Virus record (IMG/VR): IMGVR_UViG_3300047678_000276
Location: 12,323-76,322 of that record
DNA length: 64,000 nucleotides
Source: a virus
Reading direction: 5' to 3' (one strand)
The notes under the pieces: model-generated
Seen by the model: only the letters and a program-made list of their open reading frames with translations
The model's database searches: none
What the model was told of the DNA's origin: nothing
Shown: piece by piece, positions 7,137 through 21,792 of the stretch
Layout of the letters: every line of letters starts with the position of its first letter
Numbering within the stretch: the stretch's first letter is position 1
Program-made: the position numbers and the translations under genes

Positions 7137-7223
7137 TTTTTAAGTTCTGGTCAGAAACTTTCTATTGGTTGGCACTTACAGATCCAGGAAAGAAATAAAA
7201 AAAAGGAGAATGATCTCCTCTTT
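7137..7223 (+). other. Counter-oriented non-coding unit 1 (class-1 motif + GTTGGCAC..GATCCAGG + hairpin)
   Basis: 7154-7189 is 35/36 identical to 36965-37000; related copies at 17463, 23737, 29968, 33866, 36947, 40767. Confidence 0.75.
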
Positions 7224-8430: not shown

Positions 8431-8721
8431 TTATTTTGTTATAAGCAATTCAACTTCACTTGGCGCAACTTCAACGAAACCAAGTTTTTGAATATCTTTT
8501 TCAAATTCATATTCAGAAATGTTTTCAAAGAAGTCTGGATAAACTCTTAAGAACCCTCTCATTGTGTCAATGAAACAATCTACCATAACTCCCATGTAAG
8601 TATTGCTTATACTGTTATAGGTGTAAATAAATGATATAGTTGAATCTCTGTAGTGATGAACATTAAATACAATGTCCTTATTTTCTTTTACGATCTTCGA
8701 ATAATTTGGCTTAAATTCCAT
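8431..8721 (-). CDS. Hypothetical protein
   Basis: Start moved to MEFKPNY, downstream of the class-1 motif. Confidence 0.6.
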   Translation of the reverse strand: MEFKPNYSKIVKENKDIVFNVHHYRDSTISFIYTYNSISNTYMGVMVDCFIDTMRGFLRVYPDFFENISEYEFEKDIQKLGFVEVAPSEVELLITK

Positions 8722-8763
8722 GTTGTTTTTATTTAATAGAATGATTTGTTTGTGAAACTTAAA

Positions 8764-8976
8764 AACTAAACGTACTGGCACAGCGCTATCAAATGAGGGT
8801 GCAGTTCTCTAAGACAGTCCACTTACAGTATCGTGGAGATAACCTATAACTCAATGCTCTGAATTCAATCTTTGATAAGATCTCTTTCTATAGGTTGCTT
8901 CATGGAAGTGCCAAGCTTTCGAGTCAAATTATGTCTACCTATGCATTACCTCAGCACTGCACCAGTACGTTTAGTT
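8764..8976 (-). ncRNA. Candidate structured ncRNA (about 213 nt)
   Basis: 24-bp closing stem fully paired on the minus strand with three G-U pairs; nested inner stems; no convincing ORF. Confidence 0.65.
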
Positions 8977-8982
8977 ATTTAT

Positions 8983-9192
8983 TTAAAAACCTTCTCCTCT
9001 TTTTTCTTCCTCTTCATCAAATGGACATTCCAGGTCATCAACGATTTGTTCGATGTGTTCAAATGGATTATCCATTAATTTCTCAGACAACTTTGGAACA
9101 GCTGCTTCCATAATATCTTGTTCAGTGGCATTCTCATCCACAATTACCCTGGTCAATAAAGACACATATACTAACTTTGCTACTTTTTTCAT
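8983..9192 (-). CDS. Hypothetical acidic protein
   Basis: ATG 6 nt after TCTAT. Confidence 0.65.
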   Translation of the reverse strand: MKKVAKLVYVSLLTRVIVDENATEQDIMEAAVPKLSEKLMDNPFEHIEQIVDDLECPFDEEEEKRGEGF

Positions 9193-9229
9193 ATTTGAAT
9201 AGAATTAAATTAAACCAGAACTTAAAAAC

Positions 9230-10278
9230 TTATCTCTCTGCTTTATAAATGATTTGTTTCATTGTGCAATCTGTCAAATCGCTGTCAGGTCGCTTGCCTA
9301 AATATACAGGTTGAAATATAGCACCGCCTTTATAGGCATATAAATATCTTACTTCAACCAAGTCTCCAATTTCAGGTACGTCGTAGTTTGGAGAGATAGT
9401 TACCTTGCCCATAAATATCCTCTCTGAGCCTTCTATAAGCTCTAAGCCAACACTTCTTTTGGCTTTGGTAATGTTTGCCACAATGAATGTTGCAGTCTTT
9501 TGAAACTTGAATTTTAACTGGTCTCCGCCACTTGCTGGTCTACCATGTTTATAAGTAGCATTTTTCTTTTTAAATACAATCCCCTCTTTATTCTCCTTTT
9601 TGAGTTTGTCAAATAAAGCTCTTTTTTGTTCTGTGGTATAAGCTGTTTCAACAACTTGAATGTTCTCATCAAATTTTAAAGTTCCTAAAACATTTAACCT
9701 ACCAACACAAGGTTGGCTTTTCATATCATTGCCATTAAGAGATAGAATATCAAATACATATAATTTGTTTCCGATAATCTCTCCATCAAGAATGAAGTCT
9801 GCTGCGTGTGAACGCTCGCCGAGAACTGAATTGATAATTGTATCAGGTAATGGAACTTCTGTTCCTTTTTTGTTCAGACCAAAGATTTTTGGTCCAGTGA
9901 TAAGCATTCTTCTTTCGCCGTCTTGTTTTTCTTGAGCGATGTATTCGTCGTTTGTAATATATTCTTCCACGTCCTCAATAGTATTAAGGAGCTGTGGAAG
10001 AATAATAACTTCTTTAGAAACAACAGTTACATTAGAGAATTCTTTTTTTTTTCGCCTTCAGTGTAACCTTTTCTTAGCTGTTCTTTTAATTTGCTTTCAT
10101 AAACCTTGTCAGCCTCTTTTAAAGGTAAAGGAGTAGGAGTTTTTGTTCCAGCCGAAAGGTTGCTGCCTCTGCGACCATACTGAAAGTTAACCACAAAGCC
10201 ATCACCAGATTTTTCTAACTGGATATGGTATTCTTTGTCGCTGTTTCCTTCTTGAAAATAAAGTGATACGTTTTTCAT
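9230..10278 (-). CDS. WGR-domain ATP-dependent DNA ligase, interrupted by a frameshift at the A10 run (10043-10052)
   Basis: WGR-like SDKEY..QYGRRG..KGY (10027-10278); ligase motifs EKQDG, DGEII, FDIL, EGIVFK, KFK plus OB fold (9230-9970); -1 frame joins them via ..KEFSNVTVVSKEVIILPQLLN.. Confidence 0.8.
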
Positions 10279-10652: not shown

Positions 10653-11519
10653 TTATTTTAACCCCTGAAAAAGAAATGCTATTGTATCTACATTCCAACC
10701 ATTGCCAAGAGCTTTATATCTTGCCCCGTCGCTTACCATTGCTGTATGTCCTTCAGGAACGCCTTGAAGTCTTTCGTATTCAGTTGGAGTTAATTTTCTA
10801 ACTCTACCATCCTGGATAACTTTCTTTTGTTGATTACCTCCACAAACTGCTGTTAAGGTTTGGCATTTATGTTTTGTTGAATTAACACGCTTTAAAATAT
10901 CATGTCCATTGATTGCAAGTGTGGCGCAAACAACTTTATCATCGCCGTGGAATACAAATGGCTCTTTATAGAAATACTTCTCCGCCACAGTTGGCTCTAA
11001 TATATCTCCAAGAACCAAGGAGTTTTTTTCTGTTGGTAATTCTAACAATGGAATGTTGGTCCAGTATAATCTAGGACGACTTTGTGCCGAAAAGATCTCA
11101 GAATTGATTTGTATAGGCTCCACGCCGAGAATATCTGTGATAACTTGTTCCCATTGTTTTTTCATTACAACATTCTCCAAGAAGAAATACTTTGGCTTCA
11201 GTTCTTTTAATAATCGAACATATTCGAAAAATAATTTTGATTTCCCGTCAAACCCAGTATTAGATGAGATGGCAGGTGAAAAGCTTTGGCAAGGTGAACC
11301 GCCGATTAATAGATCAATCTGAGGGAGTCCTTGAGCTGTAACCTTGGTAACATCTCCTAATTGAACTGTTCCAGGAAAGGTGTTTTGTGTAACTTTAATA
11401 GAAGCTTTCTCGATCTCAGAAGCGAAATATTGCTTCACTTGGATTCCTAATCTCTGTAGAGCCAATTGGCCACAGCTAATGCCATCGAATAATGATAATA
11501 CGTTTATTGGTTCTTTCAT
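10653..11519 (-). CDS. DNA cytosine-5 methyltransferase
   Basis: VLSLFDGISCG, GGSPCQSFS, ENV, QSRPR, LGNGW motifs. Confidence 0.92.
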   Translation of the reverse strand: MKEPINVLSLFDGISCGQLALQRLGIQVKQYFASEIEKASIKVTQNTFPGTVQLGDVTKVTAQGLPQIDLLIGGSPCQSFSPAISSNTGFDGKSKLFFEYVRLLKELKPKYFFLENVVMKKQWEQVITDILGVEPIQINSEIFSAQSRPRLYWTNIPLLELPTEKNSLVLGDILEPTVAEKYFYKEPFVFHGDDKVVCATLAINGHDILKRVNSTKHKCQTLTAVCGGNQQKKVIQDGRVRKLTPTEYERLQGVPEGHTAMVSDGARYKALGNGWNVDTIAFLFQGLK

Positions 11520-12777: not shown

Positions 12778-12863
12778 CGTCCGTTAGACTAGCGGTTATG
12801 GTCGCTGTGCTTTCACCACAGTGTTTCGAAAGGAGCTCATGGGTTCGAATCCCATACGGACGA
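12778..12863 (+). tRNA. tRNA with Glu(TTC) anticodon and long variable arm
   Basis: CGTCCGT/ACGGACG; CTGTG-CTTTCAC-CACAG; 17-nt variable region; ATGGG-TTCGAAT-CCCAT. Confidence 0.85.
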
Positions 12864-12877
12864 CAATTTTAACATAT

Positions 12878-13621: not shown

Positions 13622-13684
13622 GATTGTTTTTATATATGAATAGAAATAAAAAAGGAGAAACTTAAAAATTTCTCCTCAATTTTT

Positions 13685-14479: not shown

Positions 14480-14529
14480 ATAAAGATAGAAACAAAAAAG
14501 GAGAAACTTAAAAATCTCTCCTTTTAATT

Positions 14530-16299: not shown

Positions 16300-16373
16300 G
16301 GTTTGTTTGTTTGTTATATGAATAGAAACAAAAAAGGGAGAACTTAAAAATTCTCCATTTGTTTTTTAACTTT

Positions 16374-21240: not shown

Positions 21241-21792
21241 TTATTCTGCTGCCCAACCAAAGAATACAAATGTACCTTCTTTTTCGCTTGTAGATTGTTT
21301 ATAGCTTACTTCTGCAACTTTTGAACCTCCGCCATCCAAAACTTTTTCCATGTGAATAGAGCAACGTGTTTGATTTTTTTCAGCATAAGCACGTGCAACC
21401 TTAACTGCATCGCCTTTTGTACGTTTTGAGTCAATGGTTCCGTTTCTGTCTGATACAACAAACTTCAATACCCACTTCTTTGTACCTTTACTTACAATAT
21501 GTTCAACTTGGCTCTTAACCTTATTTGTATTGCCTTTTGGTTGTTCAATACAGATCGCCAGGCAAGAACCCCATTTTTCTGCTCTGTCAATATTCTTATT
21601 GATAAAGGCATTTAATTCTTGTTTACTACGTTTAAATTCATCAGTAACGTCTCTGAAACCATGTGTGGTTGAAATTGTGCCATTGTAACCATCTTGATGT
21701 CCGTATTCCTCTCTTGCATCTTCGCAAGCTCTGTTATACGCATCATTCATTGTTTTACCTCTTCTTTTTGTTGTGAAACTACAAGCTCCCAT
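21241..21792 (-). CDS. Conserved phage protein (MGA..EYGH.GYNGTIST..FFGWA)
   Basis: ORF with class-1 motif. Confidence 0.75.
   Translation of the reverse strand: MGACSFTTKRRGKTMNDAYNRACEDAREEYGHQDGYNGTISTTHGFRDVTDEFKRSKQELNAFINKNIDRAEKWGSCLAICIEQPKGNTNKVKSQVEHIVSKGTKKWVLKFVVSDRNGTIDSKRTKGDAVKVARAYAEKNQTRCSIHMEKVLDGGGSKVAEVSYKQSTSEKEGTFVFFGWAAE

Follow-up and report, generated by a model that had tools for sequence, protein, structure and literature searches.

What is the role, if any, of a 213-nt non-coding element that stands between two small genes in the early region of an uncultured large phage and whose ends are complementary to each other? An earlier reading made from the letters alone (hereafter the sequence-only reading) took it for a highly structured RNA recalling 6S RNA in size and rod shape, and offered a new non-coding RNA or an RNase III substrate as alternatives. 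The whole stretch of DNA analysed here, referred to as the window, is 64 kb long and corresponds to bases 12323-76322 of the 76,322-base IMG/VR virus record IMGVR_UViG_3300047678_000276, whose completeness is estimated at 41% by CheckV. Coordinates are those of the window unless otherwise indicated.

From 1 to ~41 kb of the window, nearly all genes are carried by the minus strand, and a copy of the motif TTTTAAGTT-N14/15-TCTAT precedes most of the small ones, at about one copy per small gene. The whole record holds 94 exact copies, 82 on the minus strand and 12 on the plus strand. This motif is a phage-specific promoter type that matches neither the sigma-70 nor the Bacteroidota consensus; a search of IMG/VR with the promoter pattern gave no match, and the motif was found neither in a 518-kb phage nor in 20 records sharing the 69-aa gene that lies next to the element. 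On the minus strand the gene order is C5 methyltransferase, WGR ORF, ligase, 69-aa gene, element and 96-aa orphan gene, with the following features.

10653-11519, minus strand: C5 methyltransferase, in the same gene run as the element
10027-10278, minus strand: WGR-domain ORF, same gene run
9230-9970, minus strand: ATP-dependent DNA ligase, same gene run
9199..9227, minus strand: early promoter of the 69-aa gene, TTTTAAGTT-N15-TCTAT (positions 21521-21549 of the whole record, G000)
8983..9192, minus strand: 69-aa gene, upstream of the element, from a conserved small-protein family of large phages
8953..8976, minus strand: 5' arm of the closing stem, AACUAAACGUACUGGUGCAGUGCU, starting 7 nt past the stop codon (TAA) of the 69-aa gene
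8788..8952, minus strand: interior of the element, 165 nt, non-coding, with folding not beyond chance
8887..8897, plus strand: TCTATAGGTTG, a match to TCTATWKGTTR inside the interior
8764..8787, minus strand: 3' arm of the closing stem, AGCGCUGUGCCAGUACGUUUAGUU, its last 1-2 bases overlapping the T-run of the next promoter
8736..8765, minus strand: early promoter repeat TTTTTAAGTTTCACAAACAAATCATTCTAT of the 96-aa gene, abutting the 3' arm
8431..8721, minus strand: 96-aa orphan gene, downstream of the element, with its ATG at 8721

The element as a whole (8764-8976) exactly occupies the space that separates the 69-aa gene's stop codon from the following early promoter, and its 3' arm ends inside the T-run of the promoter repeat TTTTTAAGTTTCACAAACAAATCATTCTA. 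At other junctions of the array the next promoter begins within a few bases of the stop codon, so the element constitutes extra DNA at a cassette junction. Its G+C content is ~41% as against ~33% in the surroundings. A GTG-extended form of the 96-aa ORF, reaching 8781 and overlapping the arm, is probably not real, and tblastn of all ORFs of the record against the interior returned no credible match that would identify it as a decayed gene.

Which transcripts would contain the element? No motif of the array was found upstream of the 5' arm, and the nearest promoter able to transcribe the element is the one at 9199..9227 on the minus strand. Since the element carries no promoter motif of its own, minus-strand RNA could include it only as the tail of transcripts starting at 9227 or upstream, and it would form the 3' untranslated tail of the 69-aa gene. 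We detected no canonical terminator at its end. Over the 14 kb scanned (5-19 kb), canonical GC-rich hairpin terminators occur mainly at the ends of gene blocks, and read-through is therefore expected.

The pairing of the two ends described by the sequence-only reading is borne out: on the minus strand, 8976-8953 pairs with 8787-8764 at 24/24 positions. At the DNA level the arms are repeats lying 165 bp apart, with Watson-Crick matches at 21 of 24 positions; the outer 15 bp are perfect and the mismatches cluster toward the inner end. All three mismatches are indeed G-U on the minus strand (element positions 16-198, 17-197 and 21-193). They are transitions, which read as G-U in the coding strand and as A-C in its complement. 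The whole 213 nt fold at -70.8 kcal/mol on the minus strand (z -5.24) and at -63.4 kcal/mol on the plus strand (z -4.46), a difference of 7.4 kcal/mol in favor of the minus strand, and the stem is kept in both the minimum-energy and the centroid folds of a 561-nt transcript context.

Counting partners within 400 nt, the closing stem amounts to 25 contiguous Watson-Crick and G-U pairs. The best stem in 100 dinucleotide shuffles of the window had 23 pairs (mean 17.4), and natural DNA of related phages, 153 kb in all, reached 21 contiguous pairs at most. When Watson-Crick pairs alone are considered, 21/24 was reached in 2 of 60 window shuffles, so that the excess is real but depends in part on the wobble pairs. 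A further 25-pair 'stem', 10280-10304/10597-10621, proved to be spurious, produced by a direct repeat with abundant T, G and TATA. A shuffle-based stem scan combined with a repeat scan detected no second structure of this kind in the 64-kb window, and the search for inverted repeats in the other 12 kb of the record found none either. The other 80-odd cassettes of the array are without such stems, and the sole clamped unit holds no gene.

The exclusive occurrence of G-U at the mismatched positions had been put forward as a sign of selection on RNA. The observation stands, and these transitions on the coding strand are the only evidence that discriminates between an RNA and a DNA reading of the element. 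As an argument the strand bias is weak, because two of the three G-U pairs are adjacent and perhaps arose in one mutational event: given transitions, the chance of all three being G-U is 1/8, or 1/4 if the adjacent pair counts as one event.

The interior tells a different story from that of the arms. Relative to its own shuffles, 8788-8952 has a folding z of -0.15 for the minus strand and of -0.50 for the plus strand. The UCCAC/GUGGA side hairpin predicted by the sequence-only reading is found in the minimum-energy fold, and so are the nested stems GAGG/CCUC, UGCA/UGCA and AGAC/GUCU; since the interior folds no better than its shuffles, the nested stems are at the level expected by chance. The longer AACCUAUA/UAUAGGUU helix is missing from the minus-strand fold, and the change U87>G breaks it in both related strains. 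The description of the element as highly structured thus has to be given up for the interior and applies to the closing stem alone. The real content of the element is a 24-bp inverted repeat clamping an otherwise unremarkable 165-nt spacer.

Those related strains are near-identical to the present phage, come from two other metagenomes and are the only other places where the interior was found. A contig from a sediment run covers 8808-8958 with one difference (1/151), and a contig from a wastewater run covers 8802-8945 with four (4/144), corresponding to identities of 97-99% over the 151 and 144 nt covered. Flanking genes of the same strains differ at 5/256 and 3/150 positions, a rate about equal to that of the interior. 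Of the three interior changes listed, U87>G and G111>A fall at positions that are unpaired in the minimum-energy fold, and A126>G, opposite U55, is one-sided: it turns an A-U into a G-U pair and leaves the predicted pairing in place.

Beyond these strains the element appears to be confined to its own lineage. It is present in a single copy in the 76-kb record. Blastn with 8600-9200 as query found nothing among 50,697 records of cultured phages, exact patterns of the arms (20-22-mers) and of the interior had no match in IMG/VR, and a 22-mer of the arm had none in 185,579 GTDB species genomes. An interior 22-mer gave one 25-nt match in GTDB, in a Clostridia MAG, and an arm 18-mer gave more than 120 matches in metagenome contigs, mostly in high-GC coding DNA; all of these were attributed to chance. 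The upstream neighbor is much more widely distributed. The 69-aa protein (KVAKLVYVSLxTRVIVDENA...DDLECPF) belongs to a conserved family found throughout IMG/VR phage records; it comprises 31 clusters, 59-94% identical, and matches nothing in Pfam or PHROG. The 69-aa gene has its nearest relatives in clusters P0001-P0004, at 84-94% identity, and the 96-aa gene in cluster P0033, at 81%. Through the alignment of the 69-aa family, 20 loci were collected from IMG/VR records, most of them fragments and three of them complete genomes of 288-363 kb. In these loci (L129-L148) the 69-aa gene always lies in a different gene neighborhood. They share neither neighboring genes nor promoter motif with the record studied here, and the element is found in none of them downstream of the 69-aa gene nor elsewhere in the 20 records. 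The 518-kb phage, the sole match of the ligase search, was considered as close kin and rejected, as it contains neither the element nor the promoter motif. We conclude that the element is real and lineage-specific. Many of the 20 loci show TAnnTTTG motifs beside the relative of the 69-aa gene; TAnnTTTG is the -7 promoter consensus of Bacteroides (PMC4747536), and to judge from these motifs the host may belong to the Bacteroidota.

The interior also holds a promoter-like motif on the plus strand. TCTATWKGTTR has ten matches in the window where 0.5 would be expected by chance, and TCTATAGGTTG is the sole copy outside nine promoter-bearing units, seven of which are gene-less and counter-oriented. 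Upstream of TCTATAGGTTG the TTTTAAGTT box, which nearly every active promoter here possesses, is missing. The site is probably not an active promoter and is possibly a relic. Local alignment of the interior with the counter-oriented units revealed a weak similarity, with p ~0.09 for the best score and p ~0.01 for the summed score. The gene-less units themselves lie on the plus strand at 7161, 17487, 23761, 29992, 33890, 36972 and 40791, continue as TCTAT-WKGTTR-GC(A/G)C, often followed by GATC, and lead into the hairpin that terminates the gene block coming from the other side; short conserved antisense RNAs may be their product. The same TCTAT-WKGTTR tail is found at two minus-strand sites, 39826 and 40834.

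What, then, could such a clamped spacer do? Known sites of RNase III cleavage include the long-range stalks flanking 16S and 23S rRNA, the early intercistronic hairpins of T7 and lambda sib, and the standard substrate of the bacterial enzyme is a perfect duplex extending over more than two helical turns. The reading that we prefer, tentatively and with a probability of about 0.35, is that the element acts as a long-range RNA duplex in read-through early transcripts and is cut by the RNase III of the host. Transcription would start at the promoter of the 69-aa gene and at promoters further upstream, those of the ligase, WGR and methyltransferase genes. Once the 3' arm of this lineage-specific non-coding insert had been made, the ends would pair into a 24-bp RNA duplex and close off the 165-nt interior. 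Cutting would part the messages for DNA metabolism, which lie upstream, from those of the orphan genes downstream, and it would also free a stem-closed RNA of roughly 170-190 nt.

Among the proposals of the sequence-only reading, the RNase III substrate remains the best. Uninterrupted double-stranded RNA of at least ~20 bp on the transcribed strand is what the enzyme calls for, and the stem offers 24-25 contiguous pairs; the element moreover sits among 82 co-directional promoters. As in the rRNA stalks, the T7 early sites and lambda sib, a long duplex lies within a longer transcript. Like the T7 sites it exceeds 20 bp and is placed between cistrons of a phage early transcript, and like lambda sib it would be complete only in read-through RNA. 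The element differs from these systems in being a single site where they form a set, and in bracketing 165 nt of non-coding sequence instead of rRNA or a short loop. With only one such structure found, it is not a general processing system. Against the RNase III reading are the absence of the element from the 20 related records, an interior that is not structured beyond chance and a G-U bias that amounts to 2-3 events. The 76-kb fragment encodes no detectable RNase III, and the enzyme is assumed to be supplied by the host. We infer minus-strand transcription, cleavage and benefit to the phage alike.

If the element is an RNase III site, it would represent a deliberate interruption of an array that elsewhere continues unbroken, each cassette with one gene and one promoter, and would illustrate how this phage separates its DNA-metabolism messages from its orphan early genes. 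It is improbable that it is a working, empty stem-clamped cassette of read-through early transcripts from which RNase III excises a stable phage small RNA of ~190 nt, or that its 24-bp repeats serve a phage-borne inverton as recombination sites for flipping an antisense promoter against the ligase-methylase block; if either the excised-RNA or the inverton version were true, the early region of a large lytic phage would contain an unusual regulatory device. Should the element be only the relic of an insertion, it would be ordinary. Being single and lineage-specific, it is chiefly useful for directing RNA studies to this phage group.

The strongest competitor of the RNase III reading is doubtful but to be taken seriously: a foldback or MITE-like DNA insertion, or a neutral relic of a local rearrangement or inverted duplication, in which the RNA pairing would be a by-product. 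The 24-bp terminal inverted repeats would then be transposon-type ends or the remains of a decaying duplication. The perfection of the outer 15 bp and the inner position of the mismatches are as in transposon ends, and the raised G+C content, the absence of the element in 20/20 related loci downstream of the 69-aa gene and from the whole records, and the resemblance of interior pieces to the counter-oriented promoter units of the array are all consistent with an insertion. Relatives seem to be mosaic at the level of cassettes: a 500-nt contig of a related strain from another metagenome (run X5, aligned to 9156-9347) carries ~302 additional bases close to the 69-aa gene's promoter, between the end of the ligase and the start of the 69-aa gene, a sign that whole cassettes are gained or lost at promoter-motif junctions. 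GTTTTTAA is present on both sides of the element, whose flanks read ...ATAAAT and TTTAAG..., but on one side this common sequence is displaced by 6 nt; the arms are not flanked by an adjoining direct repeat, and hence there is no clean target-site duplication. The sequence-only reading had set a MITE with target-site duplications against its own proposal, and neither a clean duplication nor a second copy came to light. The single copy in 76 kb, the lack of any exact match of arm 20-22-mers in IMG/VR or in 185,579 species genomes and the failure to find a transposase or recombinase nearby also argue against an insertion, and neutral decay would not favor G-U on the coding strand.

The closest parallels on the insertion side are the Correia elements of Neisseria and the MITEs of bacteria. 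Like the element, they are short, non-coding, bounded by terminal inverted repeats of ~25 bp and located in transcribed intergenic DNA. Unlike them, the element is present in one copy, lacks a target duplication and has no related copies in the collections searched; it also resides in a phage, whereas Correia elements reside in a bacterial chromosome. RNase III can bind and cleave Correia elements, so that inserts of this type may turn into RNase III sites (PMC2649163); the insertion and RNase III readings are accordingly not exclusive.

An invertible DNA switch is unlikely. A site-specific recombinase would in this case flip the 165-bp interior between the 24-bp repeats and reorient the weak internal promoter-like motif. 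The arms contain AAACGTAC, which presumably resembles the repeat consensus of the Bacteroides fragilis invertase; this likeness was left out of the reasoning. The geometry is typical, as more than 75% of invertons in one dataset are shorter than 300 bases (PMC11602134), and from the coordinates the centers of the arms are 189 bp, or ~18 helical turns, apart. Known invertons, for example those of Bacteroides fragilis (PMC4747536, PMC11602134), have repeats of ~20-30 bp around a segment of less than 300 bp with a promoter-like motif, and the element likewise carries a promoter-tail motif on the opposite strand; a Bacteroidota host, suggested by the TAnnTTTG motifs (PMC4747536), would belong to a group rich in invertons. 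In contrast to the Bacteroides fragilis systems, neither a recombinase nor, among the contigs, a second orientation was detected for the element, and its promoter-like motif is incomplete, lacking the TTTTAAGTT box. Neither a serine (PF00239) nor a tyrosine (PF00589) recombinase was found in the 76-kb record, itself an estimated 41% of the genome; one from the host might do the flipping. The downstream gene already has its own promoter, and no strand-changing joints are listed in the run tables, which consist of contigs and not of reads.

Least probable among the ranked readings, and very unlikely in our estimate, is a trans-acting structured RNA with its function in the interior, be it a 6S-like RNA polymerase decoy, a Y-RNA-like molecule or another non-coding RNA. 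A length of ~200 nt, a long closing stem and a raised G+C content fit this proposal, and the interior is kept in strains from two other habitats. It nevertheless changes at about the rate of the flanking genes (1/151 and 4/144 against 5/256 and 3/150), folds at z -0.15 and has no homologue in the 20 related records. Neither 6S RNA nor any other Rfam family was assigned to the element, whether the whole window was scanned at the gathering score or the region 8500-9250 at a relaxed cutoff of E up to 10; four tRNAs are all that Rfam detected in the window. With 6S RNA (Rfam RF00013 and relatives) the element shares a similar length and paired ends. It departs from 6S in model match, in architecture, its fold being multibranched with small loops and without the large central bubble resembling an open promoter, and in having no transcription unit of its own, as it carries no promoter motif and its end shows no detectable canonical terminator. 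The comparison with 6S RNA should be abandoned. The element is most likely an RNase III site or a leftover insertion and not a 6S-like regulatory RNA, the approximate order of probability descending from the RNase III duplex through the insertion or relic and the inverton to the trans-acting RNA. An integron attC-like site was rejected, as the ends match the RYYYAAC / GTTRRRY cores at only 6/7 positions by eye, the length is 213 bp compared with 57-141 bp and no tyrosine recombinase was found.

Several minor observations concern the surrounding array. A 242-aa ORF at 2226-2954 on the minus strand has a NUMOD1 domain, typical of homing endonucleases, and the early array therefore includes at least one selfish mobile gene. 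On the plus strand, a normal 74-nt tRNA-Glu(UUC) is followed directly by a second tRNA-Glu(UUC) at 12778-12864, whose 87 nt are unusually long for a tRNA-Glu. The WGR and ligase ORFs (9970-10278) belong to a single gene, which a frameshift at a stretch of ten A (10043-10052, minus strand) divides in two: the ligase continues directly from WGR when read one frame over past the A-run, and in the distant 518-kb phage the two are fused in one protein of 353 aa (L005:3680-4741). The split may reflect a mistake of assembly, a genuine frameshift or slippage. Finally, terminator-like hairpins at 14496-14525, 13652-13677 and 16337-16356 on the minus strand carry the promoter box TTTTTAAG in their loop, so that a single stem-loop both closes one cassette and supplies the promoter of its successor. 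They are reminiscent of the promoter-stem-loop cassettes of T4-type phages.
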